In this document: piece by piece, positions 5,630-23,376 of the stretch
How positions within the stretch are numbered: the stretch's first letter is position 1
Layout of the letters: the number at the start of each line of letters is the position of its first letter
The notes under the pieces: model-generated
Database searches by the model: none
Seen by the model: only the letters and a program-made list of their open reading frames with translations
Told to the model about the DNA's origin: nothing
From: Promethearchaeota archaeon
Lineage (GTDB): Archaea; Asgardarchaeota; Lokiarchaeia; Sigyniarchaeales; SOKP01
Assembly (NCBI GenBank): GCA_048938445.1
Contig: JBHLME010000043.1
Span: 4,082 to 33,688, forward strand
Direction of reading: 5' to 3'
DNA: 29,607 nt
Translations under genes and position numbers: made by a program

Positions 5630-6586
5630 TTATTGCTTTTTTTTTTTAATTTTACTAAGATAATCAAAAGCAGAATAAGCAGCAATTACTCCTTCTGAAA
5701 CTCCTGTTATTGCTTGTTTGAAAGGAGCATCAGCAACATCACCAGCAGCATAAATACCTGCGATATTGGTTTCAGATTTACGGTTGATCATTATTTCTTT
5801 CTTATCGTTTACTTTAACTCCTATATCAATAGCAATTTGAGATTGTGGAATGGATCCGACTTCAATAAAGACGCCATCAACTTTAAATTCATCACCATTT
5901 TCAAAAATTACAGATGTTACAGAATTGTTTCCTTTTATTTCTATAATATTTGTATTAATAATGATTTCAATTTTATTATTTTCATCAACTCTCTTTTTGT
6001 TTATCGGTTCTGCACGAATTTCTTCCCCTCTATAAATTATAAACACTTTTTTCGCATGTTGAGAGAGAAATAATGCTTCCTTTGCAGCAGAATCGCTTCC
6101 TCCTATAACAGCTAAGATCTTTTCTTTAAAAAATATTCCGTCACATGTGGCACAATAAGAAACCCCTTTACCTGTGAATTCATCTTCTCCTGGAACATTT
6201 AATTTCTTTCTCTCTGAACCTGTCGCTATGACAACAGTATATGCTTTAAATGACATGAAAAATGACTTTAAAATAAAATAATCATCAACTTTTTCAATAC
6301 TATTTATCTCATCAGTGATATAGGGAATGCTTAAAGAATTGATATGATCACGAAACATTTCCATTAATTCAGGACCACTTACCGATGTAATTCCGGGGTA
6401 ATTTTCAACAATATGAGTAGAGGCAATTAGTCCCCCATAAGTCTTCCCGATAACTAACAGATCGAGAGCAAACCTTGCAGCATATATTGCACAACCAAGA
6501 GCAGTTGGCCCCCCTCCTAAAATGATGATATCATATATCTTATTCGGATCGGGCATTCCAGAATCAATATTAAACATATAAATCAA
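5630..6586 (-). CDS. trxB: Thioredoxin-disulfide reductase (low-MW, FAD/NADPH)
   Basis: GGGP FAD motif, VENYPG, GVSYCATCDG active site, GGSDSA NAD(P)H motif, GIYAAGDV...QAIT. Confidence 0.93.
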   Translation of the reverse strand: MIYMFNIDSGMPDPNKIYDIIILGGGPTALGCAIYAARFALDLLVIGKTYGGLIASTHIVENYPGITSVSGPELMEMFRDHINSLSIPYITDEINSIEKVDDYFILKSFFMSFKAYTVVIATGSERKKLNVPGEDEFTGKGVSYCATCDGIFFKEKILAVIGGSDSAAKEALFLSQHAKKVFIIYRGEEIRAEPINKKRVDENNKIEIIINTNIIEIKGNNSVTSVIFENGDEFKVDGVFIEVGSIPQSQIAIDIGVKVNDKKEIMINRKSETNIAGIYAAGDVADAPFKQAITGVSEGVIAAYSAFDYLSKIKKKKQ

Positions 6587-6768
6587 TAAATTAGGTTACA
6601 ATAATTGATTATAATAGTAAAAGAATTTTTTTAAAGTTATGAATTTTCAAATAAAAGTATTCTTTTAATTTCTTAGGATGACCACAATATTTATGATATA
6701 ACTATAATTTATGGATAAATGCTGAAAATTAAACAAAAATAAAAAATATTAAAAAAGATATGGTTGAT

Positions 6769-7482
6769 TTAATTGCTACTGCTTGGTTTAGGCATGAAAT
6801 TATATAACCACAGCGCAAATTCTCGTGGATTTCTTGATTGCATGATAACTCGTCCAGGGCCAGTCAATTGAGCGATTAATCCCTCTCCTGAAAGAAAAGT
6901 TGACTTTAGACCTCCAACTCTTTTAATATCAAAAGTAACACTTGTCTCCATTGCGACTAGATGTCCATTATCACAATTGAAGATTTGACCATCTCCAAGA
7001 TTGATTTCATGGAAGGCACCCATGGAACCTATAAATAAATCCCCAGGACCATTTAATGCTTCAACTCGTAAGAAAAAAGCTCTTTCTCCTCCAAAAATTC
7101 CTCTCTTTAAACCTAAGAAATTTGTTTGTGTTTCAAAATGCATAGAACTCGCAACAAAGCTACCACTAAAGAGAATCCAACTTTCATTCTGCTTTAAAGG
7201 TATATGCATCATATCTCCAGGAAATGCGGGAGCCAAACCTAGATATCCATCATCATGAGCGGTAAAAGTATTCATGAAAAAGGTTTCTCCAGCAAGAACG
7301 CGTTTCAATGACTTTAAAAAACTTTTAGAAGCTTTTTTTGTAGAAATTTCTAAAGTAGGTTCAAAATAAATCATTGTTCCCCCCTCGCATTGTATCATCT
7401 GACCTTTTTTTAAATGTATTCTTAGATAAGAAAAAGTAGGGGTTTCAAAAACATCATATTCATATTCTATTCCTTGTGGCAT
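6769..7482 (-). CDS. AIM24/TIGR00266-family protein
   Basis: GETFFMNTF, LAPAFPGD, DNGHLVA, SGEGL...LTGPGRVIMQSR motifs. Confidence 0.88.
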   Translation of the reverse strand: MPQGIEYEYDVFETPTFSYLRIHLKKGQMIQCEGGTMIYFEPTLEISTKKASKSFLKSLKRVLAGETFFMNTFTAHDDGYLGLAPAFPGDMMHIPLKQNESWILFSGSFVASSMHFETQTNFLGLKRGIFGGERAFFLRVEALNGPGDLFIGSMGAFHEINLGDGQIFNCDNGHLVAMETSVTFDIKRVGGLKSTFLSGEGLIAQLTGPGRVIMQSRNPREFALWLYNFMPKPSSSN

Positions 7483-7498
7483 ATTTAATCATATTTCA

Positions 7499-7556
7499 AA
7501 TGTTTTATGTGAATAAATGACTCATGCTATCATTATAAACCTTTGCATAAAACATT
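7499..7556. repeat. Perfect 11-bp inverted repeat with an inner 5-bp stem, enclosing a TATA-like box
   Basis: AATGTTTTATG (7499-7509) / CATAAAACATT (7546-7556); inner AATGA (7516-7520) / TCATT (7530-7534); minus-strand TTTATAA at 7539-7533. Confidence 0.5.
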
Positions 7557-7643
7557 ATTTTATCATTTAATCAGATATTAAACAATAAAGATGTTGATTA
7601 GTGGATATGATTGACATTAGATCTAATTCTTTTTTAAAAAAGT

Positions 7644-8327
7644 TTAATATTGAACACGAATGTTTCCTCCAATCAAGGATCTCAAAACTACGTCAGGTCC
7701 AACCAACCCAGAAATGGCTTTTTGATCATTTACTATGGTGTATGGTACTCCGGCTGCATCGTAATATTGACCAATATCTAAATTCGCTGAAATATCAATT
7801 ATTACAGTTCTAATTTTTCCATCTCCTGCTATTGCAAATAAATTTGCTATACTTACCATCTGAGGGCAATATGGGCAAGTATTTGTAATCATTACTTTAA
7901 TCGTTGAAGGCTTAATCCTGTTAAGGTTTTGTTTTATAGTTGCGGCATAATAATTTGGTGCTCCTGCGAAAGCAAAAAGGGCTTGGACAAATGGTTGAAT
8001 TTCTTGCCCTCTTGGAGCTGCTAAATATCTAATTATCTCCCTTCCATTATCATCTATGAATAAAATGGTAGGTACTCTTTGAATATCATATTGCTGCGCA
8101 AATTTGGGATTATCATCAATTGATAATTCTTCTATAGTAAGCATGCCATTAGAATGTTCTTCATAAATTCTCAAGAGAGCCATGAATTGATCACAATCCA
8201 TGCATGCTTGAATTTTCCTACCATTTGGTTCGATACCTCTTGAAGTAAATACTTTTAACTTTACAGGTTTTTTTAATTTTGCCATTTCTTGATTGATTAC
8301 TTGTTTGTAATGGTCATCTGAAGCCAT
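7644..8327 (-). CDS. Protein disulfide oxidoreductase (two thioredoxin folds, PDO/AhpF-NTD-like)
   Basis: Two CxxC sites (CMDC, CPYC) and two cis-Pro loops (RVPT, GVPY). Confidence 0.88.
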   Translation of the reverse strand: MASDDHYKQVINQEMAKLKKPVKLKVFTSRGIEPNGRKIQACMDCDQFMALLRIYEEHSNGMLTIEELSIDDNPKFAQQYDIQRVPTILFIDDNGREIIRYLAAPRGQEIQPFVQALFAFAGAPNYYAATIKQNLNRIKPSTIKVMITNTCPYCPQMVSIANLFAIAGDGKIRTVIIDISANLDIGQYYDAAGVPYTIVNDQKAISGLVGPDVVLRSLIGGNIRVQY

Positions 8328-8358
8328 TTTTACTTACACCTCCTTTATTAATTCACTC

Positions 8359-9048
8359 TCATGAATACATTCCATCAAAATCTCTTTTTCCTTTTGTTAA
8401 TTTTTCTAAAATGTCTTGAAGTGTTACCATTCCGGAGATTTGATCCTTTTCATTGATTAAAGTATGAGGTACTCCTTGAACGTTATATTTTAGTGCAATG
8501 TCTGGATTCATGTTAATATCAATAATCTCGACTTTAATCTTTCCTTTTGATAATAAAGCGACCAGATTCAATAAAGGGACAATCCCCGGACAATATGGGC
8601 ATGTCAGTGTTATGAATAATTTGATGATTGATTTTTCAATTTTTTTCAAACTTGAAGCTATCACATCTCTATAGTAAGAATTTACTCCAGAGAAGTATTG
8701 TAAGGTTTCAATGAATGGAGCTAGCTCGGGGCCTGTTGGGTTTGCCGTGTATCTTATCACTTCTTTTTCATTTTTGTCCATAAAAAGAATCGTTGGAATT
8801 CTAACTACATTATATTTTTCGGCAATATCTTGGTTTTCTTCAGTTGATATTTCTTCAATTTTTAATTTATTATTAGATAATTCTGATAATGTTTGCAACA
8901 GGTTAAAAATCCCTTCACAGGCCATACATTTCCTTAGTTTATTTCCATCTTCGCCATTTTTATAGTCTGTAAATAATTTTATTGTAATATCGTCTTTTAA
9001 TTTTTCCATTCCTCTTTTAATATTTTCTATCTCATTAGTCGAGAACAT
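8359..9048 (-). CDS. Protein disulfide oxidoreductase paralog (PDO/AhpF-NTD-like)
   Basis: CMAC and CPYC sites, RIPT and GVPH loops; colinear with the downstream paralog. Confidence 0.88.
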   Translation of the reverse strand: MFSTNEIENIKRGMEKLKDDITIKLFTDYKNGEDGNKLRKCMACEGIFNLLQTLSELSNNKLKIEEISTEENQDIAEKYNVVRIPTILFMDKNEKEVIRYTANPTGPELAPFIETLQYFSGVNSYYRDVIASSLKKIEKSIIKLFITLTCPYCPGIVPLLNLVALLSKGKIKVEIIDINMNPDIALKYNVQGVPHTLINEKDQISGMVTLQDILEKLTKGKRDFDGMYS

Positions 9049-9217
9049 TACTAATTCTTCTCCTTTTTACCCATTCTAATATTTATTAGGGAATATTCAA
9101 TTAAAATTTTATTACATTAAAATCATAAATCATTAACCTTAATGCTCTAGATTGAATAACTATTTAGGATTATTTTTTAATACTTTAAAAGTTTAAAAAT
9201 TAAGTTTTAAAATAAGT

Positions 9218-10207
9218 TTATTTGATATTTTCATTTAAGAGTTCTTCTCTTCTCCTGCGATAAATAACAATTGGAATATCTCCTTGAATTAGCTCCTCTC
9301 CCATTTTCAAATTTGTTTTAATTGGTTGTTGAGTTATTACAACTCTTCTATCTTGATGAAGGATAATGATATTAAATTTATTTGCCAACCAATTGACAAA
9401 TGATTTTAAAAGAGGGATTCTTATAAATTTTTGATAAAAACGCATGTAGAATTTTGTGTGTTTCTCATCTATCGGCACGAAAGCAATGAATATTCGAACT
9501 TTATCACCTAAATAATTTTGCCATATATGTGGAAATTTAAAATGAAGATGAAACTTTTTCATTTCTTTAGTAAATCGTTCCGGTTTCAATGGTTTAGTCT
9601 TTCCATCATCCTTTTGGTTATATACCCAGAGAATAAATTCATTTTTATCTTCAGAAAATTCAACTAAGGGACCATGAACGAGAGTTTGATTCCCACGACC
9701 AATTGTATTGTGATGGACGAATGGTAAATGAACAACATCTAATTGATTTTCAATTGCTCGAGAATAATGGACAGGCCACACTTCAGAAAAAGTTTTATAT
9801 GAGAATTTTTTATCTATATCCTCAAAAAATGGAACAGGAGGATATTCTTCCCTAGGTTCCCCCCACCATATCCATATGAAATCATGTTCTTCTCTAGTCG
9901 GATATGAAATTACTTTAAACCGCTCAGGAACAGGTGAATTTTTCCCATTTGCGGGTATGATCGTGCATTTTCCTGTTCTGTCATATCGCAATCCGTGAAA
10001 AGGACATTCAATTATTTCAAACTTATCACATATTTTACCAATACTCAGTTGAGCTCCTCTATGAGCACATTTATCTCTCAGACATATTACGTTTTTATTA
10101 TGATTTCTCCAAAAAACTAACTTCTCTCCAAGCCTTGTTACTCCCATTAATTTTCCTTTTTTAACTTCTTTTGACTCCAATACAGCATACCATTGATTCC
10201 GAATCAT
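9218..10207 (-). CDS. Rieske non-heme iron oxygenase, alpha/monooxygenase type (VanA/KshA-like architecture)
   Basis: RNQWY start, Rieske ligands CAHR...CPFH, mononuclear Fe motif ENQLDVVHLPFVH, distal Asp in ILHQD. Confidence 0.9.
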   Translation of the reverse strand: MIRNQWYAVLESKEVKKGKLMGVTRLGEKLVFWRNHNKNVICLRDKCAHRGAQLSIGKICDKFEIIECPFHGLRYDRTGKCTIIPANGKNSPVPERFKVISYPTREEHDFIWIWWGEPREEYPPVPFFEDIDKKFSYKTFSEVWPVHYSRAIENQLDVVHLPFVHHNTIGRGNQTLVHGPLVEFSEDKNEFILWVYNQKDDGKTKPLKPERFTKEMKKFHLHFKFPHIWQNYLGDKVRIFIAFVPIDEKHTKFYMRFYQKFIRIPLLKSFVNWLANKFNIIILHQDRRVVITQQPIKTNLKMGEELIQGDIPIVIYRRRREELLNENIK

Positions 10208-10348
10208 ATCTGATCTATTATATTATTTTACCTGTAAAATTAACTTCTTTCATAATAAATTATAAATAGAGATTGATAAGTTAAATACAAATGAATTTTT
10301 TAATCTGAATTTTTATTAAATTAAATAAAAATAAAATAATTTTTTAAT

Positions 10349-11473
10349 GTGAGTGAAATGATATTTCAATTAAATCCTATTGCAGGAGTTATTCTTTTAA
10401 TACCAATTATATTTTTTATTTTTACGATTGGTTTTTTAGTATTTTTTTTAAGACGATATCTCGAAACAAAACATAAAATGTTTGGTTATTTAACAGTCTT
10501 CCTTTTAACTTATCTTTTACAGAATATATTTCAAATTGGTGAAATAGTTTCTAATACTAGAGCATTAATTGATTTTAATTTTATCATGCAAGAAACGTTT
10601 AATATGTTAGTATTATATTCAATGGTAGTACTTCTTGAAGTATTTGAGAGGGATGTTAGTTTTTCACGTAGGCAATCAATATTGACTATTCTTGTTTTTG
10701 CTACAATTGGTGGTATGATTTCTACACCAAAATTTATATATGACGAAAGTCTAATTTTTAGCACGAGCTTTTCATGGGAAGAACCAACCACATATATACA
10801 AATGATTTTTTATTTAATTGCCGGAATATGGTTAATATCAATGTTATATAGAAACTTTAAAACCGCATGGTCAAAAAAACAAAAAAGAATCATACGGTGG
10901 CTCTGGTGGGGTGTTTTTTTTGGAATATTTTATCCTTTTATAGCATATATCGGTATCATGTTTTTTTCAGCAATAAATACAATATTATTGATGACTCTCC
11001 TCATTATTACTTTAATTATAAGAAATATAGGAATTCTTTTCATTGCTGTTGCTTTTTTACAAGCAAGTAAGGAACCTTGGTTATTACAGAGACACAGAGC
11101 GCATTTCCTCATAGTTTATTCCAAAGATGGAATTCAATTATTCTCCAAGGTTTTTAATAAGAAATTGTCAGATGATAAGACACTACTATTAGCAGGAGGT
11201 TTTTCAGCGATAACTTCCATATTTAAAGAAGCAACTGAAACTACAGGAAGTATTAAATCTATATTATTAGAAGATAAAGAACTCCGTATAATAAATAAAA
11301 AGAATTTTATTTGTGCTATTTTGGTAGATTTTTCAACTCAAGCATCAGAAATTGCTCATGAACATTTTGCCGATGAATTTGAAACGATGTTTAAAGAAGA
11401 TTTAGAGGACTTTAATGGTGAAGTATCAAAATTTGATGTAGCTGATATAATTGTAGTGAAATATTTTTCATGA
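10349..11473 (+). CDS. Seven-TM membrane protein with C-terminal longin-like domain
   Basis: About seven hydrophobic helices in residues ~10-237. The tail FLIVYSKDGIQLFSKVF...LLAGGFSAITSIFKE...IKSI...FADEFETMF..DLEDFNGEVSKF follows the Asgard longin pattern. Confidence 0.75.
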   Translation: MSEMIFQLNPIAGVILLIPIIFFIFTIGFLVFFLRRYLETKHKMFGYLTVFLLTYLLQNIFQIGEIVSNTRALIDFNFIMQETFNMLVLYSMVVLLEVFERDVSFSRRQSILTILVFATIGGMISTPKFIYDESLIFSTSFSWEEPTTYIQMIFYLIAGIWLISMLYRNFKTAWSKKQKRIIRWLWWGVFFGIFYPFIAYIGIMFFSAINTILLMTLLIITLIIRNIGILFIAVAFLQASKEPWLLQRHRAHFLIVYSKDGIQLFSKVFNKKLSDDKTLLLAGGFSAITSIFKEATETTGSIKSILLEDKELRIINKKNFICAILVDFSTQASEIAHEHFADEFETMFKEDLEDFNGEVSKFDVADIIVVKYFS

Positions 11474-11484
11474 AACTATTTCTA

Positions 11485-12483
11485 TTAGAATAATAGTTCA
11501 CACATATCTTTCAAAATTGGTTTAATTTTTTTTTTCTTTCCATATACTTTAATGATCCAATAAGCATCAGGACAATATGTTGTTATGAATGTTTTATTTT
11601 CATCATAATTTCCAAGACTTTTAAAGTCCTCCATTCTTTTTAGGGCAATCTGGTTAATGACATCCGTCCTGAGTTGATGGCCAATACCACCTCCACAACA
11701 CCTATTAGGCACATCTTTCAATATAGAATAACCACTTTTTTTATACAAGTTCTCTAAATTTTCAACAATTTTTGGTATCTCTCCATTTCTTAGTGGACAA
11801 GCATGTTGAATGATTAATTTTCCCGATTTTTTTATTTTAGAAGGTTCTAAATACTCGGTAAAAAATTTAATATTCATTTTTATGGTACTAAATTCCTTTT
11901 TAAAAACCAAATAGCAACTTGGACATGTAGTAATGATTGTTTCAATTCCCTTTTGTTGAAAAAGTTCTTTATTCTTCATTACTAATTCATGATATGATTC
12001 TATCGCACCATTGCATAAAATAGGATAACCACAGCATATTTCCTCATTTAAAACTGTAAAGTTTACTTTCTTTTTAAGTAAATATTCTATAATGTTTTCA
12101 GCATATTTAGGAGTTTTAATGCTTGTAAAGCATCCCATGTACAATAATGTTTTTGATTTTTCAGGAATATTTTCAAAATGGCGAACCCTACTTTTATTTT
12201 TAATGAAAGGAGTTCCATGGATTTCAAGCGCCTTTATAGTATCTTCTAATCCTTCGATTCTACCGCCATCTTTTAAAAATTTTTCCTTTAGAATGAATCG
12301 TTCAGCAGTAGTCCCACAATCATTGCAGTGAATACAATTATAAACTCTCAAGTAATCCTCTTGAGAAAACTTGTATTCTTTTTGATGGTCAACAAGCCAC
12401 TTGACTTCCTCGTTTTCTATGAAATGATCTGGATCAGCTTCTCTACAGGGACAATAGAATTCTTCATTAGATTTTTCGCTCAT
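11485..12483 (-). CDS. CCG-domain Fe-S protein (HdrD/GlpC-like)
   Basis: CIHCNDC; CCG repeat 1 GC...CCGYP...CPSC; repeat 2 HAC...CCGGG...CPDA (last Cys missing). Confidence 0.85.
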   Translation of the reverse strand: MSEKSNEEFYCPCREADPDHFIENEEVKWLVDHQKEYKFSQEDYLRVYNCIHCNDCGTTAERFILKEKFLKDGGRIEGLEDTIKALEIHGTPFIKNKSRVRHFENIPEKSKTLLYMGCFTSIKTPKYAENIIEYLLKKKVNFTVLNEEICCGYPILCNGAIESYHELVMKNKELFQQKGIETIITTCPSCYLVFKKEFSTIKMNIKFFTEYLEPSKIKKSGKLIIQHACPLRNGEIPKIVENLENLYKKSGYSILKDVPNRCCGGGIGHQLRTDVINQIALKRMEDFKSLGNYDENKTFITTYCPDAYWIIKVYGKKKKIKPILKDMCELLF

Positions 12484-13481
12484 GATAATAATTCAAAAAT
12501 ATCCTTTGCTTTTGGTTTAATCTTGCATTGCTTACTAAATCGTTTTAATATCCACCAACAACTCACGCAATATGTAGTTGCATAGTCAACATCATCTCTA
12601 TCAAAATCTTCCATCCTTTTTCTTGCGATGGCATCGATGATATCAATTCTATGCATGTATCCCAATCCCCCGCCACAACACCAATGTGGGACATTGGCGA
12701 TCTCATATCCACTTTCTATTAAAGTATTATCAACGAATTCTGAAATATCTTCCCGACCACGATTTATAAGTTGACAAAGATGCTGAAGTTCCACCTTTCC
12801 AGATTTTTTTGTTTCAGCTGGTTTTAGATAATCAATTGCAAACTCAAATTCAGTATCAGAATCCATTTCTGGCTTATAAAATTTGTTAAATAAGAAATAA
12901 CATGCTGGACAGAGGCAAATTACTTTTTTATAATTCTTAAATATCTCAATATTTTCTTCTTTACATTTTTCAAATTCTTGCATTGAACCACTTGCAAACC
13001 AAGGCCATCCACAACAAATTTCTTGCTCCAAGATCGTAAAATCTATTCCTTGTTTTAGTAAATATTCTAAAGAATGTTCAGTATAACGGGGAATGCGAAT
13101 CGTGGACAAGCATCCCATAAAATACAACGTATCTGATTCTTCCGGAATTCCTTCTGGACGCTTTATCCTCATTATATTCGTGGGATATGGACTTCTAAAT
13201 TTTTCAAAACACTCTCGCATTTCATCTAATCCTTTGAGAGTAAAACCTTGTTTTAAAAACTCTTCTTTTAGCTTGATGCGCTCCATTTCTGTATCGCACA
13301 ATCCACAATGCACGCAATTATAGATACGATAATAATCTTCTTGTTTAAATTTGAGATCATCAAGATTTTTTATCATCTGTTCTACGTCTTCATCCGAATA
13401 AAAGTTATCTTTATCAACTTCTTCAGTTGGATATTTTTTTCTATCTTTCGGATATTCTAAGTTTCCTTTCATGGTAACCAT
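12480..13481 (-). CDS. CCG-domain Fe-S protein (HdrD/GlpC-like), paralog of the downstream gene
   Basis: CVHCGLC; GC...CCGWP...CPAC; HLC...CCGGG...CVSC. Stop overlaps the start of the paralog (ATGA). Confidence 0.85.
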   Translation of the reverse strand: MVTMKGNLEYPKDRKKYPTEEVDKDNFYSDEDVEQMIKNLDDLKFKQEDYYRIYNCVHCGLCDTEMERIKLKEEFLKQGFTLKGLDEMRECFEKFRSPYPTNIMRIKRPEGIPEESDTLYFMGCLSTIRIPRYTEHSLEYLLKQGIDFTILEQEICCGWPWFASGSMQEFEKCKEENIEIFKNYKKVICLCPACYFLFNKFYKPEMDSDTEFEFAIDYLKPAETKKSGKVELQHLCQLINRGREDISEFVDNTLIESGYEIANVPHWCCGGGLGYMHRIDIIDAIARKRMEDFDRDDVDYATTYCVSCWWILKRFSKQCKIKPKAKDIFELLS

Positions 13482-13610: not shown

Positions 13611-14735
13611 TTGTCTGGAAATATGGAAGAACTTTTTATAATAACCGAAGGTGGTCAATTAATTTTTAGCTGGCATCCAAGAAATTTATCAAAGGATTCA
13701 AAACAAGATGATGATTTAATCACGGGATTTCTCTCAGCACTTAATAGTTTTGCTACCCTTGAAAGGGGGGAAGACATCAAATCTTTAAAATTAAAGGAAA
13801 CCACGATCATATTTGAAAAGAATGATGATTTGGTCCAGAAACTTACATTTGTTATAACTACAAAAAATGAATTATTGATTGAGATTTGTCATTCTATTGT
13901 TCATGATCTTATGGATTTGTTTTTGAAAACCTATGAAGACATACTTAATAGAGAATTTGATGGTGAAATCTCAAAATTTTTGCCATTTTCGCAACAAGTT
14001 GAAAAAATAGTATATAATCATGGTTTGGATATCTTAAATGATTCTGTTATCGAAATAAATAAAGGAGGCATCATGAAATCAATAACACTTATAGAACCAA
14101 AAAGCGCTCAAATCTTTTATATTCATTCAAAACAATATGTAGATAAAGACAAACTTAGCTTTCTAATCCCTCTAATTGCTAATTCTTCTCGATTATTATA
14201 TAAGAATAATCTTGGTGAAAACGTCAGGTGGATCTTGCTTACTACTGCTAGGAGTGAAATCATGTTAGTAGAAATAAGGAATAAGTTATTAATTATTAAG
14301 CAATATCAATTAGAAAAAAATATCGAAAATGATTTCCTCTCTTTAGAATATTTTAAAAACAAGGATGTATACGTGAAAAAACCTAAAAAAGTAGTAAAGA
14401 CATTTGAGAATTTAATTTGGAGCCCTAAAATAAAGCAATTATTTCTAGTTGATTTGGTTGGAAAGATTCTTTATTCGAGGATCTTTGATGAGTCTTATAA
14501 TTGTATGGATTATATTCCCGAAACAATAAGCTTCTTAACGTCATCTAAAAAAACCAGTGAGCAAATCTATAATCAAGTCTTATTTCATTCAACTATCGGT
14601 GGGGACAAACAGTTAACTACCATTTGCATTAATTTTAATAATCTAGCTTTGATATTGATTGGAGATATTCATGAATTGAGCGATTTTAAAGTTATCGAAA
14701 ACATTTGCGAAGAAATTGTCATCCAACTGATATGA
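13611..14735 (+). CDS. Soluble multi-longin/roadblock domain protein
   Basis: N-terminal longin pattern (ELFIITEGGQLIFSW...LITGFLSALNSFA...IKSLKL...FDGEISKF), then two more beta-beta-alpha-beta units (SITLIEPKSAQIFY...; QLFLVDLVGKILYS...). Start may be ATG 13623. Confidence 0.7.
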   Translation: MSGNMEELFIITEGGQLIFSWHPRNLSKDSKQDDDLITGFLSALNSFATLERGEDIKSLKLKETTIIFEKNDDLVQKLTFVITTKNELLIEICHSIVHDLMDLFLKTYEDILNREFDGEISKFLPFSQQVEKIVYNHGLDILNDSVIEINKGGIMKSITLIEPKSAQIFYIHSKQYVDKDKLSFLIPLIANSSRLLYKNNLGENVRWILLTTARSEIMLVEIRNKLLIIKQYQLEKNIENDFLSLEYFKNKDVYVKKPKKVVKTFENLIWSPKIKQLFLVDLVGKILYSRIFDESYNCMDYIPETISFLTSSKKTSEQIYNQVLFHSTIGGDKQLTTICINFNNLALILIGDIHELSDFKVIENICEEIVIQLI

Positions 14736-15924: not shown

Positions 15925-16078
15925 TCATATTCTTAAGTAACATTTCTATTTTTTTTTTCACAAAAATCAATTATCATACTTTCATCTAATTTTTTCATAC
16001 TCAATTTTAAATAAATAATTTAACCAAATTTTCATATTGGCTTCGGAATTATTCATATTATATTCTATAGTGATAGGA

Positions 16079-16086
16079 TTTAAATA
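16079..16086 (+). promoter_or_regulatory. Candidate TATA box for the Cys-rich peptide gene
   Basis: TTTAAATA about 50 nt upstream of ATG 16137. Weak evidence because the background is very AT-rich. Confidence 0.3.
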
Positions 16087-16136
16087 AAACTTCACTAATA
16101 ATTTTATTAACTAAATAAATTTGTTTAGGGAAAAAA

Positions 16137-16262
16137 ATGAAAATTGTTAAAAAAGAAAAAATGACCGCAACAGCATGCAAATGCGGTAGTGCCTGCATTT
16201 CCGCAAGTTGTAAATGTGGAAGTGCTTGTATTAGCAGCTGCAAATGTGGAAGCTCATGCTAA
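16137..16262 (+). CDS. 41-aa Cys-rich repeat peptide: putative radical-SAM-modified RiPP precursor (alternative: metallothionein)
   Basis: Below the ORF-track cutoff. Translates as MKIVKKEKMTATACKCGSACISASCKCGSACISSCKCGSSC*. Three CKCGS(A/S)C repeats differ mostly at synonymous positions (TGC/TGT, GGT/GGA, AGT/AGC, GCC/GCT), indicating selection on the protein. Followed by an oligo-T tract. Confidence 0.88.
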   Translation: MKIVKKEKMTATACKCGSACISASCKCGSACISSCKCGSSC

Positions 16263-16280
16263 AAAATCTATTTATATCTC

Positions 16281-16289
16281 TTTTTTTTT
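16281..16289 (+). terminator. Oligo-T terminator after the peptide gene
   Basis: T9 run 19 nt after TAA. Confidence 0.5.
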
Positions 16290-16440
16290 ATATATCCTTT
16301 ACTTTTTCATAATATATCAATTGTAAGGCAAAATCAATAAGGTTATTCTAGATTTACTCTCTTTTCCTAATATTTTTAAAATTACATAATATGATATCCT
16401 TTCATTAAATTAATGTATATAAAAAACATTTATATTGTCA

Positions 16441-16740
16441 TTAAAAAATAATACAAATAATAACGCCAAAAAGCATAAATCCTATCATTATAGAGAGAAC
16501 TATTATTGAACGATTTCTATATTTTTTTTTTGTATAAGATTCAACAAGATATCTTAAACGAAAGATCCATAAGTACAATGAGCCATCAATGAGGATAATA
16601 AAAATGAATATTAAAATCCATATCTCCTTGAACCTAGGATCAGTCCCAAAAATATTCGAGAGAAGTATTGCACCCACCAAGATAAAATAATAAAAGTTCT
16701 TAATTGTTTCTAATTTTTTGATCTTATCTTCTATTGACAT
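16441..16740 (-). CDS. Small three-TM membrane protein, unknown function
   Basis: 99 aa, three hydrophobic segments with a basic loop. Confidence 0.65.
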   Translation of the reverse strand: MSIEDKIKKLETIKNFYYFILVGAILLSNIFGTDPRFKEIWILIFIFIILIDGSLYLWIFRLRYLVESYTKKKYRNRSIIVLSIMIGFMLFGVIICIIF

Positions 16741-16916
16741 TTTAAATCTCTTATTGATTTTTGATTAATCTGTGCATTTTGGTATTATTTAAGAATATAT
16801 TCCTCAATATTCTTTAAAAATGTATTTATTAAAATTTGATTATTTTTTTTTTTCAAACCCTTTTTTTTTAAATTAAAACCTTAATCTTTATATTACGCTT
16901 AATTTTACTTTATTTC

Positions 16917-18194
16917 ATGGACCAGAGTTATTATCCATGTATTTTTGACCACATTAGTTTCAGGAGATATTCTGAAATAAATATTTATGATTTGAAAAAT
17001 GATGATTCATATGTTATTGATGATGAAGCGTATGAATTATTGATGAAATTCGATGGTCAAAAAACAATTCAAGAAATACTTGAGCAGTATCCCTCCAATA
17101 AACAGCAAGAAATTACCAACGCTATTAATGATTTTTATGAATTAAATGTTATTAAATTTAGTACAAAAAAAACTGAAGATATTCCCATTCCAATAAAACT
17201 AAAAGAGAAAATACCAAAAAAAAATTACATTGGATTACCATATTTTAAGAATTTAATGCTTAATGTAACCGAAAAATGTAATTTGACATGTAAGCATTGC
17301 TACATTACTAATAAAAATCCAATAGATTTTCCATTTGATAATTTAAAGGAAATAATCAAAAAATTTTTTGATTTACAGGGAATAAAGATAATTTTGACTG
17401 GAGGAGAGCCATATCTTTACACTCACCTGAAAGAATTGTTAGTATTTTTAAAGGCTTATCCTTTACAAAAAGAAATGCTCTCCAATGGAGTTTTAATTAA
17501 AAAACATCCTGAAATTCTAACTTTATTGAAAGAAAATTATTTCGATGTTTACATTAGCATTGATGGTATGAAAGATACTCATAATGATTTTAGAAATTCA
17601 AATTGTTTTCAGGATACGATCGAGGGAATTAAATTACTGCTTGAAAATGGTATTAATACTTCAATCAATACCATGGTTCATAAACAAAACCTTGATGAAT
17701 TTGAATCAATGTTAAACCTGATAAATTCTTTAGGAAAAATAAAAAACTGGTCAATTGATATCCCAACATTTAATAATTCCATATCAAAAGATATAATAGA
17801 TAAATATGCCATAACACCGGATGAAGGAGGAAAAATATTAAAAGATTACGGATGGGGTGTTATTTACGAGTCTGAAGGGGGAAACTATGCCTGTGGACCA
17901 AATCTAATGGCAATTGATGTGACAGGAATTGTTACAAAATGTGGATTTTTTTATGAAGAAAGCGTTGGGAATGTTCATGAAATTGGACTCGAAAAAAGTT
18001 GGAAACTCATTCAAAAACAGCTTAATTGGTCCATTGATGATTTAAAATGTAATGAACTGAACTGCGAATTTTTAGATGAATGTAGAGGGGGTTGTAGATA
18101 TAGAGCATATCAACATTCTGGAGATATTCGCGGTATTGATACTTATAAATGTTTTCAATATGGAAAACTTAAAAATAAATCCGAATTAAAATGA
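16917..18194 (+). CDS. Radical SAM/SPASM-domain protein with N-terminal PqqD/RRE-like domain (putative peptide maturase)
   Basis: CNLTCKHC (17277-17300), TGGEP, SIDG. SPASM cysteines ACG...KCG...GNV...C...C....CRGGCRYRA...KC. N-terminus IYDLKNDDSYVIDDEAYELLMKFDGQKTIQEIL...INDFYELNVI fits the three-strand plus winged-helix RRE pattern. Confidence 0.92.
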   Translation: MDQSYYPCIFDHISFRRYSEINIYDLKNDDSYVIDDEAYELLMKFDGQKTIQEILEQYPSNKQQEITNAINDFYELNVIKFSTKKTEDIPIPIKLKEKIPKKNYIGLPYFKNLMLNVTEKCNLTCKHCYITNKNPIDFPFDNLKEIIKKFFDLQGIKIILTGGEPYLYTHLKELLVFLKAYPLQKEMLSNGVLIKKHPEILTLLKENYFDVYISIDGMKDTHNDFRNSNCFQDTIEGIKLLLENGINTSINTMVHKQNLDEFESMLNLINSLGKIKNWSIDIPTFNNSISKDIIDKYAITPDEGGKILKDYGWGVIYESEGGNYACGPNLMAIDVTGIVTKCGFFYEESVGNVHEIGLEKSWKLIQKQLNWSIDDLKCNELNCEFLDECRGGCRYRAYQHSGDIRGIDTYKCFQYGKLKNKSELK

Positions 18195-18220
18195 ATATAG
18201 CGAAGCAAAGAGGTGTAAAA

Positions 18221-18466
18221 ATGACAAAAAAACATGAAATAATCAGGTCTGAAGAAGATATAAGCCCATTAAATAGACAATTAATAAATGCTGTCTGTCA
18301 TAAGTGTAATTTTTATGCAAAAGACCAAGAATATTGGGAAAAAGAATATGAATGTGGAGCTTATAAATTTGTAAGACAACTTGTCGAAGATAATATCATA
18401 AATATTGATGAAATTGAAGATCTTTTTAAAAAAATTGATTTAAATCCTTTAAGAGAACTAAGATAA
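18221..18466 (+). CDS. Small CxxC...C protein co-transcribed with the rSAM gene
   Basis: VCHKCNFY...YECGAY. GAGGTG SD (18210-18215) before ATG 18221; the alternative ATG 18191 overlaps the rSAM stop. Confidence 0.75.
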   Translation: MTKKHEIIRSEEDISPLNRQLINAVCHKCNFYAKDQEYWEKEYECGAYKFVRQLVEDNIINIDEIEDLFKKIDLNPLRELR

Positions 18467-19041
18467 AATAAAATTACAAGTTCTAAATTTTATATTGAGT
18501 ATTATTTTATTATAGATAAATTCAATTTCAGCATTATTAGAATTATCCACTCTTTTTTATAATATTTTATTCAATTTAATCAGAAGAATTATTTTATTAT
18601 CAATATTTCTTAAAAAAAGAATTCAATAAATATGATTGATTAATTAAATCTCCATAATTTTCCTCTAAAGATAGAAAGAGTCCCATTTTAAGCGTTAATA
18701 TATCATATGAACATTTTTTGAATTCGGAATTTGGAAAATAATAAAAAATCAAATGATAAAGGAATTCTTTATGAATTTAATAACTTAATCTATTACGTTA
18801 GTAATACTAAAACTAATACCGTAAAATTAAAAAATAAAGCAAGGTAATTCCTCTTTAATGTCTATTAGAATTACAAAAAAACATTCACGGTCAATTATAA
18901 CTTAAAATTAAATAAATATGATAAATGAAGTTAATCAGAATTAACCTGTCTTAGTAAAAGGTAAATATTATAAACAGATATTATAAAAAAAGGTTATATA
19001 TAAACTCTATTAAAGAAAGATCAATTTTACTGAATGAAAGT

Positions 19042-21960
19042 ATGATGAAGATAGAAAGAGATGAGCCTATATATTTTGAGGGATTTGAAGTTGGAACTGT
19101 TTCTGTAAAATGGGTTCGTAGGATGAAAAATGGAAAAATAATCCGTGAATTTTTACGACATGAAGGGCATCCAAAAGAAATAATTAGAGATATTTTTAAA
19201 AGAAATAATATTTCAGAAAGTTCAAGGATTGTTATTACTGGATATGCTACTAAAAGCTATCTTAACTTACCTTATTATTCAGAAGCCGAATGTCTAGAAA
19301 AGGCACTCTCTTTTTACAATTTAAAACCAGATATTTTACTATCCCTAGGTGGCGAGACCTTTAGCATATACCCAATGAAAAATGGAATTATCAAAAACAT
19401 TATATCAACTACGAAATGTGCAGCTGGAACGGGAGAATTTATTGTTCAACAACTCCAACGCATGGGATTATCCCTTGAAAAAGGGATAAATGAAAGTGAA
19501 AAAGGCACGATTACGAAACTTGCAACACGCTGTTCTGTTCATTGTAAATCCGACGCAACACATAAGCTCAATAAAGGGGAATGTCAACCGGAAGATATAG
19601 CGAAAACATTAATTTATGATTTAGCAAGAAAAGTAAGTGACATGATTAAATCCGCTCAATGGCCTTCAAAACTAATTGTAATATCGGGAGGTGTTGGATT
19701 GAATAACGTGTTTATCAAGGATTTGAAGGAGTTTTTTCCTGATTCGGAACTTAAAGTATTACCCGAAAGTTCTTTTTTTGAAGCATTTGGTGCCTCATTG
19801 ATTGCTTCTGAATTAGATAGTATGATTCCACCAATCGAAACCTGGATTATTAATAAGGAAATGGATTTTGAGATTCGTGATCCATTAAGGAATATAGAAC
19901 CATTAGTGGAATATAGAGTGAGTTACAATTCTATCGAAAAAATCATTGATAATGATAAATATATTTTAGGTGTCGATGCTGGTTCAACTACTACAAAAGC
20001 AGTATTGTATAATATAATTGATCACTCTATTGGAGCTAGTATTTATTTACGCACTTTAGGTAATCCTATTAAGGCAACAAAAAGATGTCTTGAAGAACTT
20101 ATAAAACAAGTAGGGAAAACCTCGATAAATATCGTTCAATGTGGAGTAACCGGTTCAGCTAGAGAAATGGTTTCAGTTTATTTAGATAATTGTCTAACTT
20201 TTAACGAAATATTAGCACATGCGCGATCAGCAGTAGAAGAAGTACCCGATGTAGACACGGTTTTTGAAATTGGAGGTCAAGATTCAAAATTTATATCATT
20301 TCTCAAAGGCATCCCAATAGATTATGCTATGAATGAAGGTTGTTCAGCGGGAACGGGAAGTTTTCTTGAAGAATCCGCTTCAGTCGATATGGGAATAAAC
20401 GTAGAAAATATCAGCGATATAGCAATTAATAGTAGTAATCCAATTGCCTTCGGAGAAAGATGTGCTGCTTTTATCAATACTGATTTGAGAAACGCTCTTC
20501 AGCAAGGTGCAAAACAAGAGGATGTAATTGCAGGATTAGTGTATTCAATTGCAGATAATTATCTCTCTCGTATTGTTGGTCCTCGCCATATGGGAGCACA
20601 TATTCTCTTTCTTGGAGGCGTGGCATTGAATAAATCAGTTGCTCTAGCAATTGCCGCTTGTTCAGGACGAAAAGTCACCGTGCCTACACATCCGGAGCTT
20701 ATGGGCAGTATTGGTACTGCCTTAATGGTTCTAGACTTAATTAAAAATGGGAGTGTTATTGAACGAAAATTTGTATTAAATGACCTTATCCAAGGAGATA
20801 TGAAGGTACAAAACAATTTTCAATGTAATGCTTGTGAAAATCATTGTATGATTCAAAATATTTCAATTAGAGGACAAAAATATCCTTTTGGCGGATATTG
20901 TTCAAAATATAGATTATTAAGACGCAATAAAAAAGTAAAAGAAGGGCAGAATCTCATAGAAATAAGAAATAACCTAATGTATACGATATATGGACCACAA
21001 AATATGGAAAAATCTCCATATAATATTGGAATACCAATGTCACTAACAACACATGTATTATTTCCATTATTTTCAAGATTTTTCAATGAGTTAGGTTTTA
21101 AAATAGTAATATCAAATCCTACAAAACTCGATTCTTCAAAATCACTTGGAGCAATATGTTATCCTTGTGAAATTGTACACGGTGCTGTAATGGATCTATT
21201 AGAACGAAACATCGATTATATTTTCTTACCTTATGTAATAGAGTTGGAAATACCTTCTGGATATCTTCATGGATATACATGTCCATCAACGGCAGCAATT
21301 CCAGATATTATAAGAGCCGCTTTTGAACATGATGCTAATAAGATATTATCACCGCATATCAATATGTCTGAGGGCAATATTGAAACCACGATAAGAGAAT
21401 TAGTAACTATTGCAGAAAAACTAGGTGTTGAACAAAAAATTGGAGAAAGTGCAGCAGAAGCAGCTCTTGCACATTATTATAGTTTCATAAAAGAATATCA
21501 AACAGTGGGTAAAGAAGCGTTGAAAGCACTCAATCAAGAGCCTTCTATAATTATTGCTGGAAGACCATATGTGATTTATCCCTCTGATGTGAATTTAGCA
21601 TTACCGCGAAAGATTACTAGTAGAGGATATAACGTGATTCCAGCCGATATATTACCTAATTTAAATGATGGAAGAAATCAAGATCGGAATGTATGGTGTT
21701 TTACTCAGCAAATCGAGAATGCGATATACTTCGTGCAAGAGAATCCAAATGTTTACATTTGTCTTCTTTCCTGCTTTTCATGCGGTCCTGATAGTATCAT
21801 GTATCACCACTTTCGACAGGAATTAGAAGGATCAATCTTTTGTTATCTCGAAATAGATTCTCATACTGCTCATGCTGGTTTTGAAACAAGAATAGAAGCT
21901 TTTCTTGATATTATAGAAGAACGTCGTCGTAATTTAAACTATAATCTAAATGTGATATAA
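19042..21960 (+). CDS. CoA-substrate-specific enzyme activase (two BadF/BcrAD-type ATPase domains plus DUF2229-like domain)
   Basis: KCAAGTGEF, RCSVHCKSD, GVDAGSTTTK, EIGGQDSK, MNEGCSAGTGSF, ERCAAF, CYPCEIVHG, SCFSCGPDS, LEIDSH. Confidence 0.92.
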   Translation: MMKIERDEPIYFEGFEVGTVSVKWVRRMKNGKIIREFLRHEGHPKEIIRDIFKRNNISESSRIVITGYATKSYLNLPYYSEAECLEKALSFYNLKPDILLSLGGETFSIYPMKNGIIKNIISTTKCAAGTGEFIVQQLQRMGLSLEKGINESEKGTITKLATRCSVHCKSDATHKLNKGECQPEDIAKTLIYDLARKVSDMIKSAQWPSKLIVISGGVGLNNVFIKDLKEFFPDSELKVLPESSFFEAFGASLIASELDSMIPPIETWIINKEMDFEIRDPLRNIEPLVEYRVSYNSIEKIIDNDKYILGVDAGSTTTKAVLYNIIDHSIGASIYLRTLGNPIKATKRCLEELIKQVGKTSINIVQCGVTGSAREMVSVYLDNCLTFNEILAHARSAVEEVPDVDTVFEIGGQDSKFISFLKGIPIDYAMNEGCSAGTGSFLEESASVDMGINVENISDIAINSSNPIAFGERCAAFINTDLRNALQQGAKQEDVIAGLVYSIADNYLSRIVGPRHMGAHILFLGGVALNKSVALAIAACSGRKVTVPTHPELMGSIGTALMVLDLIKNGSVIERKFVLNDLIQGDMKVQNNFQCNACENHCMIQNISIRGQKYPFGGYCSKYRLLRRNKKVKEGQNLIEIRNNLMYTIYGPQNMEKSPYNIGIPMSLTTHVLFPLFSRFFNELGFKIVISNPTKLDSSKSLGAICYPCEIVHGAVMDLLERNIDYIFLPYVIELEIPSGYLHGYTCPSTAAIPDIIRAAFEHDANKILSPHINMSEGNIETTIRELVTIAEKLGVEQKIGESAAEAALAHYYSFIKEYQTVGKEALKALNQEPSIIIAGRPYVIYPSDVNLALPRKITSRGYNVIPADILPNLNDGRNQDRNVWCFTQQIENAIYFVQENPNVYICLLSCFSCGPDSIMYHHFRQELEGSIFCYLEIDSHTAHAGFETRIEAFLDIIEERRRNLNYNLNVI

Positions 21961-21963
21961 AAT

Positions 21964-23376
21964 ATGTTGGAAAATGTAATTGAAAGAAAAATATTGAATC
22001 CTGAATGCAGTTTTTCTGATGATTATCATTTCATTATAGATAGTGAAGGTAAACAAGTACCTTTAGACGATCCAAGAATAGTATTTGTATTTCCTGAAGC
22101 CCGAAATTCATATGGAAGGCGATTAGTCATGGATCTTTATGAAAACTATAATCGAAATATTCGCATTGCACCAAAAACGGATTCAAGTATAATTCAATTT
22201 GGAAAAAAAATATGTTCAGGGAGAGAATGTCTGGCAGCTGTTGCAATGACCGGAGCAATATTGAAAGATATTAAAGAAAATCGAAATCATGATGAAATTA
22301 CCATTTATAGAGCTCCTATAGATCAACATGGTCCTTGTCAAAATGGAGGTTGGCCAGTTTTATGGAAAACTTTTTCAAAACGATTGAATGTCAAAAATGC
22401 AATGTATTTTATAGCACCTAATTATCGTAATAAATTTTTGGGGCTTCCTCTAGATCTGATTGCGATGGAAAATATTTGCTTCTTAATTGGTAATTATATT
22501 GTGGAAGCTCGAAATGCGTTATATTGCATAGCTGAGGATAAAACTTCTGCACTTGATCTTTTTGAAACCATAACTGATAAATTTATAATGGGTGTAAGGA
22601 CAAAAGCACATGGCTTAAGACCAGGATTGTTAAAATGGGCAAAAGAAGTAGCAAAAATACCCTGTAAAATGAATGTTAGAGAAGCTCCAAAAGTACTAGT
22701 TATTGGAGGGCTTAATTTAATGTTTGATCATTATCCCGTGGAAGAATTTTTCCTAAACAAGGGGATCATACCTAAAATCGTTGATTTTTCTGAATCAGCT
22801 CTTTTAATCTTATCGGAACCTATTATACGATATGGATTCAAGAAAGGATTAATTTCACCAGAAGAGCAGTTTGATTTCTCTAATATTGATGATTCTGAAC
22901 TTAAACCAAGTGATGAAATAAAAGAAATTACAAAAGTAAGACGGAGTAAAATGAAAGTTGAGCTCTTGGAGACTCAAAGCAAATCCTTTAGAAAAGCAAT
23001 GAAAAAATCAAATTTATTGTTTGATTCCAACTCAAATGTCTTGACATACTTGATAAAAGGACACTCATATGTTACTTTAAACAGTTGTACTGAAACTACT
23101 TGCATAATAGGACGCTATATCGATTCAATTGAAAAAGATATCTATGATGGATTAATTAATCTTGGAACCTTTAACTGCCAACCAGCAATGAACTCTCAAG
23201 CTATTATTAGACCATTGGCAAATAAATCTGATATACCATACGCCGCGGTAGATTGTGAAGGTCCATGGATTTCTTCCAATCAAAAGAGACTTCTTGAAAC
23301 GATAGCAATCCAAGCAAAAAGATTACGTGAAAGTAAAAATAAAAAATTGAGACCTAATGATAAAATGTCCTTATAA
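21964..23376 (+). CDS. 2-hydroxyacyl-CoA dehydratase-like partner of the activase
   Basis: CSGRECL, GPCQNG, TFNCQP motifs typical of the C-terminal module of activase-associated proteins; 3 nt downstream of the activase stop. Confidence 0.8.
   Translation: MLENVIERKILNPECSFSDDYHFIIDSEGKQVPLDDPRIVFVFPEARNSYGRRLVMDLYENYNRNIRIAPKTDSSIIQFGKKICSGRECLAAVAMTGAILKDIKENRNHDEITIYRAPIDQHGPCQNGGWPVLWKTFSKRLNVKNAMYFIAPNYRNKFLGLPLDLIAMENICFLIGNYIVEARNALYCIAEDKTSALDLFETITDKFIMGVRTKAHGLRPGLLKWAKEVAKIPCKMNVREAPKVLVIGGLNLMFDHYPVEEFFLNKGIIPKIVDFSESALLILSEPIIRYGFKKGLISPEEQFDFSNIDDSELKPSDEIKEITKVRRSKMKVELLETQSKSFRKAMKKSNLLFDSNSNVLTYLIKGHSYVTLNSCTETTCIIGRYIDSIEKDIYDGLINLGTFNCQPAMNSQAIIRPLANKSDIPYAAVDCEGPWISSNQKRLLETIAIQAKRLRESKNKKLRPNDKMSL

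Follow-up and report, generated by a model that had tools for sequence, protein, structure and literature searches.

A 41-residue peptide with three CKCGxxC modules as the probable precursor of a three-gene radical SAM cassette in Asgard archaea

The short open reading frame (ORF) described here lies on the forward strand of a stretch of 29,607 nucleotides from a Promethearchaeota archaeon, and this whole stretch of analysed DNA is referred to below as the window. The ORF encodes a 41-aa peptide in which three CKCGxxC modules come after a Lys-rich N-terminus, and downstream of it the window encodes a radical SAM (rSAM)/SPASM enzyme and a small protein with three invariant Cys. The features of the window that enter the argument are the following:

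5630-6586: pyridine-nucleotide disulfide reductase
7644-8327 and 8359-9048: two thioredoxin-fold proteins
9218-10207: 329-aa ORF, putatively Rieske-like from sequence inspection
11485-13481: two CCG-domain proteins, common to L021 and L022, which belong to the same genus
13611-14735, plus strand: 374-aa protein with a weak longin-domain match (Fuz_longin_1, E 5.6e-4)
16079-16086, plus strand: TATA-box-like sequence TTTAAATA, 58 nt 5' of the ATG, a putative archaeal promoter
16137-16262, plus strand: peptide ORF of 41 codons, ATG at 16137 and TAA at 16260-16262, MKIVKKEKMTATACKCGSACISASCKCGSACISSCKCGSSC
16137-16175, plus strand: leader part, residues 1-13, MKIVKKEKMTATA, supported by the homologue alignment and, for residues 1-9, by the complex model
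16176-16262, plus strand: core, with three CKCGxxC modules, ISAS and ISS linkers, and Cys then TAA at the end
16281-16289, plus strand: oligo-T tract (T9), 19 nt past the stop, a putative archaeal terminator
16917-18194, plus strand: radical SAM/SPASM enzyme, 425 aa, assigned from Pfam, conservation and predicted fold
18221-18466, plus strand: 81-aa protein, encoded immediately after the rSAM gene, with three invariant Cys (CxxC...C)
19042-21960, plus strand: fusion of a BcrAD/BadFG-type activase and DUF2229, 972 aa

The genes at 5630-13481, upstream of the peptide, make up a thiol-redox neighbourhood; its part from 9218 onwards, which was compared with other loci, is shared at most within the genus. 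A stretch related to the 374-aa longin-like protein is found in another locus (L022, 10677-11045), where it lies between the rSAM and the 81-aa genes. On the other side, the activase-DUF2229 fusion precedes a 470-aa ORF that has no family assignment, and the pair spans 19042-23376 on the plus strand. Both were considered as members of the cassette and rejected, because they have no counterpart in other loci (the fusion does not recur beyond the genus). In the window, 654 nt (16263-16916) separate the peptide gene from the rSAM gene, against about 90-150 nt in L022, L023, L033 and L034. This gap holds a 99-aa membrane-like ORF (16441-16740, minus strand) that is not conserved elsewhere, and its 627 bases from 16290 to 16916 have no repeat elsewhere in the genome. 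The region from 15950 to 18500 was matched in 8 runs, all of them as sediment-metagenome DNA contigs, from 2 studies; one of these runs may be the source of the window, and no RNA run was among those listed.

A preliminary description, made from this DNA alone, had called attention to the nine Cys in a 28-residue core, to a composition restricted to C, K, G, S, A and I, and to the CxC pairs. These observations are borne out by the window copy, in which residues 14-41 hold the nine Cys in three CKCGxxC modules and the core contains no other kind of residue. The lack of aromatic residues, which had also been pointed out, is true of this copy but does not extend to the family, as some homologues carry Tyr or Phe in the linkers or just ahead of the first Cys, outside the Cys modules. 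Modules 1 and 2 both read CKCGSAC and use different codons, and the comparison of codons agrees with the earlier remark that the three modules have diverged at synonymous sites. A degenerate DNA pattern for CKCGxxC finds three matches in the window and none in 100 shuffles. The peptide gene is present as a single copy in its own genome. In one other genome (G008), two copies of a 39-aa peptide gene that differ in one residue were observed on contigs L025 and L026; their upstream regions are similar, and only one of them adjoins an rSAM gene.

The oligo-T tract that had been noticed after the gene is indeed present, and its role as a terminator would fit its position. A run of at least six T occurs 8-31 nt past the stop in all 18 peptide loci examined, and an element of the type TTTA(A/T)A(A/T)A or TTTAAA is found at -52 to -60 in 12 of them. 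According to the conserved position of the promoter-like box and the oligo-T tract, the peptide gene looks like a small transcription unit of its own. Since it holds these two signals, and is placed 3-10.5 kb from the enzyme gene in five loci, the peptide may be transcribed separately and could possibly act alone. A second ATG at 16161 (Met9) would give a 33-aa product if used, which had been proposed as a nearly leaderless form. However, Met9 is kept only within the genus and is replaced elsewhere by I, R, T, K or V, so that the 33-aa form is not supported.

A search with the single sequence gave full-length matches in related genomes; within the same family, 14 of the 36 genomes had a match at E <= 0.01. 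Across the phylum, a profile built from 17 homologues (alignment A3) detected the peptide in 27 of the 400 genomes searched, distributed over the families f1 (20/134), f6 (2/3), f5 (1/2) and f21 (3/6), and gave no match in the other families sampled among these 400 genomes. The hosts of the homologues are Asgard archaea, in line with the host that the preliminary description had assumed, and the phylum has been placed in the kingdom Promethearchaeati. Across 22 pairwise codon comparisons the pN/pS ratio ranges from 0.00 to 0.38, with synonymous sites near saturation. The 41-aa ORF is a real gene under purifying selection, and the conservation on which the preliminary description had made its own reading depend does exist. 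Gene callers almost never report this peptide: among 5.8 billion proteins only 6 match the profile, and the sole one of these named by its source is called 'hypothetical'.

The alignment of the 17 homologues reveals a conserved N-terminus and a modular remainder. The N-terminal MK(I/V)xKKxK is kept throughout, with M1 and K8 invariant, and a short spacer of small residues separates it from the first Cys. Behind the spacer, the module C-K-C-G-x-x(-x)-C appears in one, two or three copies joined by linkers of 0-5 residues; its C, K, C and G vary little or not at all, and the C-terminal residue is Cys in all homologues. The peptides range from 20 to 43 aa and hold three, six or nine Cys (four in L042). 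Single-module peptides of 20-21 aa are seen in f1, f5, f6 and f21, while L042, from family f7, encodes a divergent 21-aa form with the same N-terminus and four Cys at the end. A conserved leader joined to a variable core is what characterizes RiPP precursors. It had been suggested that a conserved MKIVKK leader would speak for a RiPP and an absent one for a metallothionein; the N-terminus is conserved in the homologues, which favours the RiPP side.

The enzyme encoded downstream has the architecture of a RiPP maturase. It starts with an RRE-like winged-helix domain (about residues 1-85), in which D35, E37 and A38 are invariant or nearly so among 18 homologues. The same 18 homologues preserve without exception the CxxxCxxC motif (C121/C125/C128) and the seven Cys of the SPASM region (C326, C342, C378, C383, C389, C393 and C412). 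Pfam recognizes Radical_SAM at 6.1e-24 and gives no match to PqqD. As many as 72 NCBIfam models match the protein, every one of them far below its own cut-off. The top ones are AhbD and NirJ, followed by ScmF, StsB, GeoRSP, ScmE, AlbA, ACGX, DynA, MftC, WgkB and PapB, and none of the peptide-maturase scores inspected comes near its cut-off (PapB 64.8/340, ACGX 68.1/400, ScmF 78.3/400, ScmE 72.5/400, StsB 76.9/625, AlbA 71.9/850). The AlphaFold model of the enzyme (pLDDT 89.2) begins with four strands and three helices (strands within 6-34, helices within 36-75), which is the winged-helix build of the RiPP recognition element (RRE). The top folds for this model are SuiB, SkfB, CteB and TigE, over 394-464 aligned columns, and SkfB is also the best PDB match by sequence. 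Full-length profile matches to the PDB entries of CteB (5wgg) and SuiB (5v1q), and to 8vpo, start at enzyme residues 22-30 and reach into the N-terminal domain. Both fold and profile alignments thus place a PqqD-like RRE domain on this maturase.

The third gene encodes the 81-aa protein. Read from its most upstream start, at 18191, the ORF overlaps the rSAM stop; the homologues begin at the Met equivalent to 18221. The protein is 63-88% identical within the family, carries a QEYWEKEYECGAYK-like block, and retains C26, C29 and C45 invariant; in distant homologues the N-terminus is not conserved. In other lineages (L042, L068 and L088) the domain is tandemly duplicated. The protein has no match in Pfam or NCBIfam, none in the PDB by sequence below E 0.16, and none in Foldseek at E <= 0.001 with an AlphaFold model that is weak (pLDDT 69.5); in the Atlas it falls in clusters of hypothetical proteins only.

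The enzyme gene lies directly upstream of the 81-aa gene in 23 of 24 loci from species-representative genomes. In one genome (L066), the 10 kb on either side of a copy of the 81-aa gene contain no rSAM gene. The peptide gene takes up three arrangements relative to this pair, the divergent one with two ranges of distance:

Same strand, 87-774 nt upstream of the rSAM gene: window, L022, L023, L025, L028, L029, L033, L034 and L068
Divergent, 183-326 nt from the rSAM start: L035, L052, L054, L042 and L088
Divergent, 1.9 kb from the rSAM gene: L089
3-10.5 kb from the rSAM gene: L024, L030, L031, L044 and L091

Loci L042, L088 and L089 belong to other families, and as their rSAM proteins are only 34-38% identical to the window enzyme, the linkage has outlasted both deep divergence and changes in orientation. 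Altogether, the peptide is linked to, and co-occurs with, the rSAM and 81-aa proteins across at least four families of the phylum. It was undetected at 10 of the 24 loci. In three of them (L047, L061 and L063) the contig breaks at the enzyme gene or within 36 nt of it, in two (L055 and L069) the peptide sits on another contig of the same genome, and in two more (L067 and L070) it lies slightly beyond the stretch first examined; at L051, L053 and L066 none of these circumstances accounts for its absence. In genome G019 (locus L038) the enzyme pair is present and the peptide is absent within 17 kb.

Co-occurrence within the family points in the same direction. The 81-aa protein is strongly matched (E < 1e-30) in 17 of the 36 genomes of the family, and the peptide is found in 14 of these 17 and in none of the remaining 19; in two of the three misses the contig stops at or inside the rSAM gene. 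These counts are not independent, as the genomes of a family are related; at the level of genus, seven genera hold both genes and six neither. In an all-against-all comparison of the ORFs of 23 loci, only two families recur, the rSAM enzyme in all 23 and the 81-aa protein in 20 (with a threshold of 70 aa per ORF). The next cluster consists of Ras-type GTPases, which appear in 8 of the 23 loci and are numerous in these genomes. The same comparison yielded no protease or exporter conserved with the cassette, and no conserved metal-resistance gene was found near it in the 23 loci. As for RiPP precursors, the peptide is linked genetically to an rSAM enzyme that has both the CxxxCxxC motif and the seven Cys of a SPASM region.

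Two further observations concern the surroundings of these loci. In 5 of the 23 loci (L023, L029, L031, L035 and L052), a gene for CbiM-type cobalt/nickel uptake lies at a distance of about 2-7 kb, which is perhaps plain synteny, as four of the five are in one genus. A second, distant rSAM gene is located about 4-5 kb from the cassette in L028 (1176-2720, the same stretch as 14188-14748 of L062), with 32% identity over 195 residues.

Complexes between leader peptides and RRE domains have already been solved for CteB, SuiB and ChlB. The predicted complex of the window enzyme and peptide obtained a score of 0.69, against 0.01 for the best control, and received the verdict 'supports binding'; because such leader-RRE complexes exist, this pass may express likeness to solved complexes and is not proof of binding. 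A mark of 0.69 is reached by 58 of 80 solved complexes and by 2 of 110 mismatched pairs, counts that hold only roughly here since custom alignments of the enzyme and the peptide were used. The runs agree in at least 32% of their contacts, and the peptide, whose own fold is uncertain, has a pLDDT of at least 36, at values of 37-39. In the model, peptide residues 1-9 would lie against the strand and helix of the RRE, touching enzyme residues 20, 22, 30-35, 37-38, 41, 65, 69, 72-73 and 76, and likewise 316-319. The invariant D35 and E37 of the enzyme would adjoin Lys2 of the peptide.

According to these data, it is proposed that the 41-aa ORF is probably the precursor peptide of a three-gene cassette for radical-SAM peptide modification, and that this cassette consists, with the same probability, of the peptide, the rSAM/SPASM enzyme with its fused RRE, and the 81-aa tri-Cys protein. 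Residues 1-9 would dock as a leader on the RRE, as the complex model suggests, and the enzyme would abstract a hydrogen atom within each CKCGxxC module. A Cys sulfur would then be linked to a carbon atom in an adjacent Lys or Gly, giving a thioether linkage of the sactionine or ranthionine type and small rings, one set per module. We infer purely by analogy that the modification probably consists of thioether cross-links; CKCGGGC modules leave Lys, Gly or Cys as the sole possible acceptors. Thioether formation is described in PMC10114670 as the common reaction of RRE-SPASM enzymes on Cys-rich cores. In a methanogen, the archaeal SPASM enzyme CrpC is reported to put thioethers (ranthionines) on the Cys-rich repeats of CrpA (PMC13692751), and for BlaA, sactionines that run from a CxC motif to Gly have been presented (PMC10288494).

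Since the cassette lacks a conserved protease or exporter, its product would probably remain in the cell as a cross-linked mini-peptide. SCIFF-type peptides are likewise presumed to stay inside the cell. Several points count against the precursor reading: the leader would be very short, of about 9-13 residues, the enzyme scores below every curated cut-off, G019 holds the enzyme pair with no peptide within 17 kb, and the separate promoter-like box and oligo-T tract, together with the distance of 3-10.5 kb in five loci, would let the peptide gene act alone.

Among the alternatives, the one that survives best, although it is improbable, is that the peptide gives rise to a small cofactor or metallophore derived from it, much as PQQ and mycofactocin arise from their precursors. 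In such a case, the modules would be modified and excised, one to three copies per precursor, and the 81-aa protein would carry or finish the product. The variation of identical modules from one to three with very short or absent linkers, the near invariance of C, K, C and G within them, the small size of a cassette without exporter, and the tight coupling to a highly conserved partner with three invariant Cys would all suit this idea. Nevertheless, neither a protease nor a further tailoring enzyme is conserved with the cassette, and linkers of 0-1 residues leave no room for a cleavage site.

A free-standing metallothionein, of the sort that the preliminary description had considered, is very unlikely. 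The peptide would in this case be unmodified and form a metal-thiolate cluster (for instance M3Cys9) to buffer Zn, Cu or Cd, and its gene would lie close to that of the rSAM enzyme by coincidence. Motifs of the CxCGxxC type are characteristic of metallothioneins from plants and fungi, and the window peptide does show a high Cys content in CxC/CxxC-type motifs without aromatics. As in the plant-type metallothioneins (PF01439, PF02068), its sequence is Cys-rich and of low complexity, with CxC and CxxxC spacing. The claimed likeness stands at the level of the motif but lies far below significance at that of the profile. With PF01439 (Metallothio_2, plant) the score is 8.5 bits (E 5.2), the cut-off being 23, and 5 of 17 members match this model, with a best E of 1.7; PF02068 (Metallothio_PEC) is matched by one of the 17, at E 0.076. 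No metallothionein profile in Pfam is found for the peptide at E <= 0.01, and none reaches its cut-off for any of the 17 members. The own promoter-like box and oligo-T of the peptide gene, as well as its distance of 3-10.5 kb from the enzyme in five loci, would also fit a gene that acts independently.

In contrast to the plant-type proteins, the peptide has a conserved Lys-rich leader, a varying number of Cys and a link to an rSAM maturase. A match to an M3Cys9 cluster had been drawn from the nine Cys of the window copy; this argument fails, because the cluster requires nine Cys and the family has three, six or nine. The conserved Cys set that a defined metal-thiolate cluster demands is thus lacking, and single-module forms of 20-21 aa occur in four families (f1, f5, f6 and f21). 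A metallothionein would leave the Lys-rich N-terminus, which is modelled on the RRE, without a role; it would not account for linkage and co-occurrence with the rSAM pair across families, and metal-resistance genes are not conserved nearby. The proposal of a eukaryote-like metallothionein independent of any RiPP reading is hence contradicted by a leader that is both conserved and modelled on the RRE and by a gene that travels with the enzyme. Judged from its sequence, membership of the peptide in a metallothionein family is not supported. Metal binding by the peptide or by its product may still occur, for instance through Cys left free.

There is equally little chance that the 81-aa protein is what the rSAM enzyme really modifies, the peptide being an accessory (an Fe-S or sulfur-handling subunit, or a regulatory one) that docks on the RRE. 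The 81-aa protein is the tighter partner of the enzyme, encoded directly downstream, 63-88% identical and with its three Cys invariant, and SPASM enzymes with protein-sized substrates are on record (PMC13692751). However, its N-terminus is not conserved in distant homologues, and the peptide has the build of leader and core and is placed on the RRE in the complex that was modelled. Finally, an ORF arisen by chance in AT-rich intergenic DNA, to which its very short length and the lack of matches to gene-family models might point, is hardly conceivable, being refuted by conservation across families of the phylum and by pN/pS of 0.00-0.38, with the motif present three times against none in shuffles.

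Returning to the precursor reading, it can be extended to a bolder proposal, which we regard as rather doubtful. The cassette would be a system of the Asgard archaea not described before, made of a modular (CKCGxxC)n precursor, an RRE-rSAM-SPASM enzyme and a new 81-aa partner, probably intracellular, whose product would be a new type of cross-link or a thiol-rich cofactor or metallophore. If so, the product could hold, for example, Cys-Lys or Cys-Gly rings and would in effect be an enzyme-tailored analogue of a metallothionein. The hybrid idea of the preliminary description, a metal-binding scaffold that is at the same time an rSAM substrate, would then be right.

Knowledge of peptide chemistry in Asgard archaea is very limited, and a compact cassette of three genes, conserved over several families and covered by no curated model, offers a clearly defined substrate, the outcome of which would be either an added cross-link chemistry or an enzyme-tailored thiol-rich peptide. 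The passages available from PMC12144867 mention rSAM RiPP clusters in Asgard archaea in general terms only. In the literature searched, nothing was found that describes the cassette, although supplementary files, which lie outside such a search, might list clusters of this kind; nothing relevant was found on metallothioneins in Asgard archaea, and five module strings occur in no searchable paper. Cys-rich precursors that adjoin rSAM/SPASM enzymes are already known as a kind. What distinguishes the present one is that none of the three parts belongs to a curated family, together with the modular core, the new accessory protein and the Asgard host range.

Several known systems can be compared with the cassette. 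Among the peptide maturases that the enzyme matches best are two of the sactipeptide type, StsB (76.9 bits) and AlbA (71.9 bits), both far below their cut-offs of 625 and 850, and the sactionines from CxC to Gly described for BlaA/BlaB (PMC10288494) are a possible model for CKCG. The peptide differs from the substrates of the StsA/StsB, BlaA/BlaB, AlbA and SkfB systems in that it has no hairpin-type acceptor region after the Cys.

CrpA/CrpC from Methanococcus voltae, as reported in PMC13692751, also combines an archaeal SPASM rSAM enzyme bearing an RRE with repeated Cys motifs that are C-terminal to a leader-like N-terminus. Nevertheless, CrpA is described there as large, with ten repeats of 17 residues and with C-X-X-Q/D motifs; the family of the window peptide measures 20-43 aa and is built on CKCGxxC. 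CrpC is assigned to TIGR04463, and this model does not appear in the top 25 of the window enzyme's 72 NCBIfam matches.

The SCIFF/ranthipeptide systems (CteA-CteB, PDB 5wgg/5why, and PapA-PapB) likewise join a short Cys-rich precursor to a maturase with RRE, rSAM and SPASM parts. No member of the peptide family (0 of 17) has any NCBIfam match at E <= 10, the SCIFF models included. On the side of the enzyme, CteB is among the best matches both by sequence and by fold. SCIFF cassettes are minimal and are not known to include a conserved protease or exporter, and the minimal cassette found here resembles them in this respect as well. It differs from them in the tandem CKCGxxC core of one to three copies, in the extra 81-aa tri-Cys partner, and in its archaeal host.
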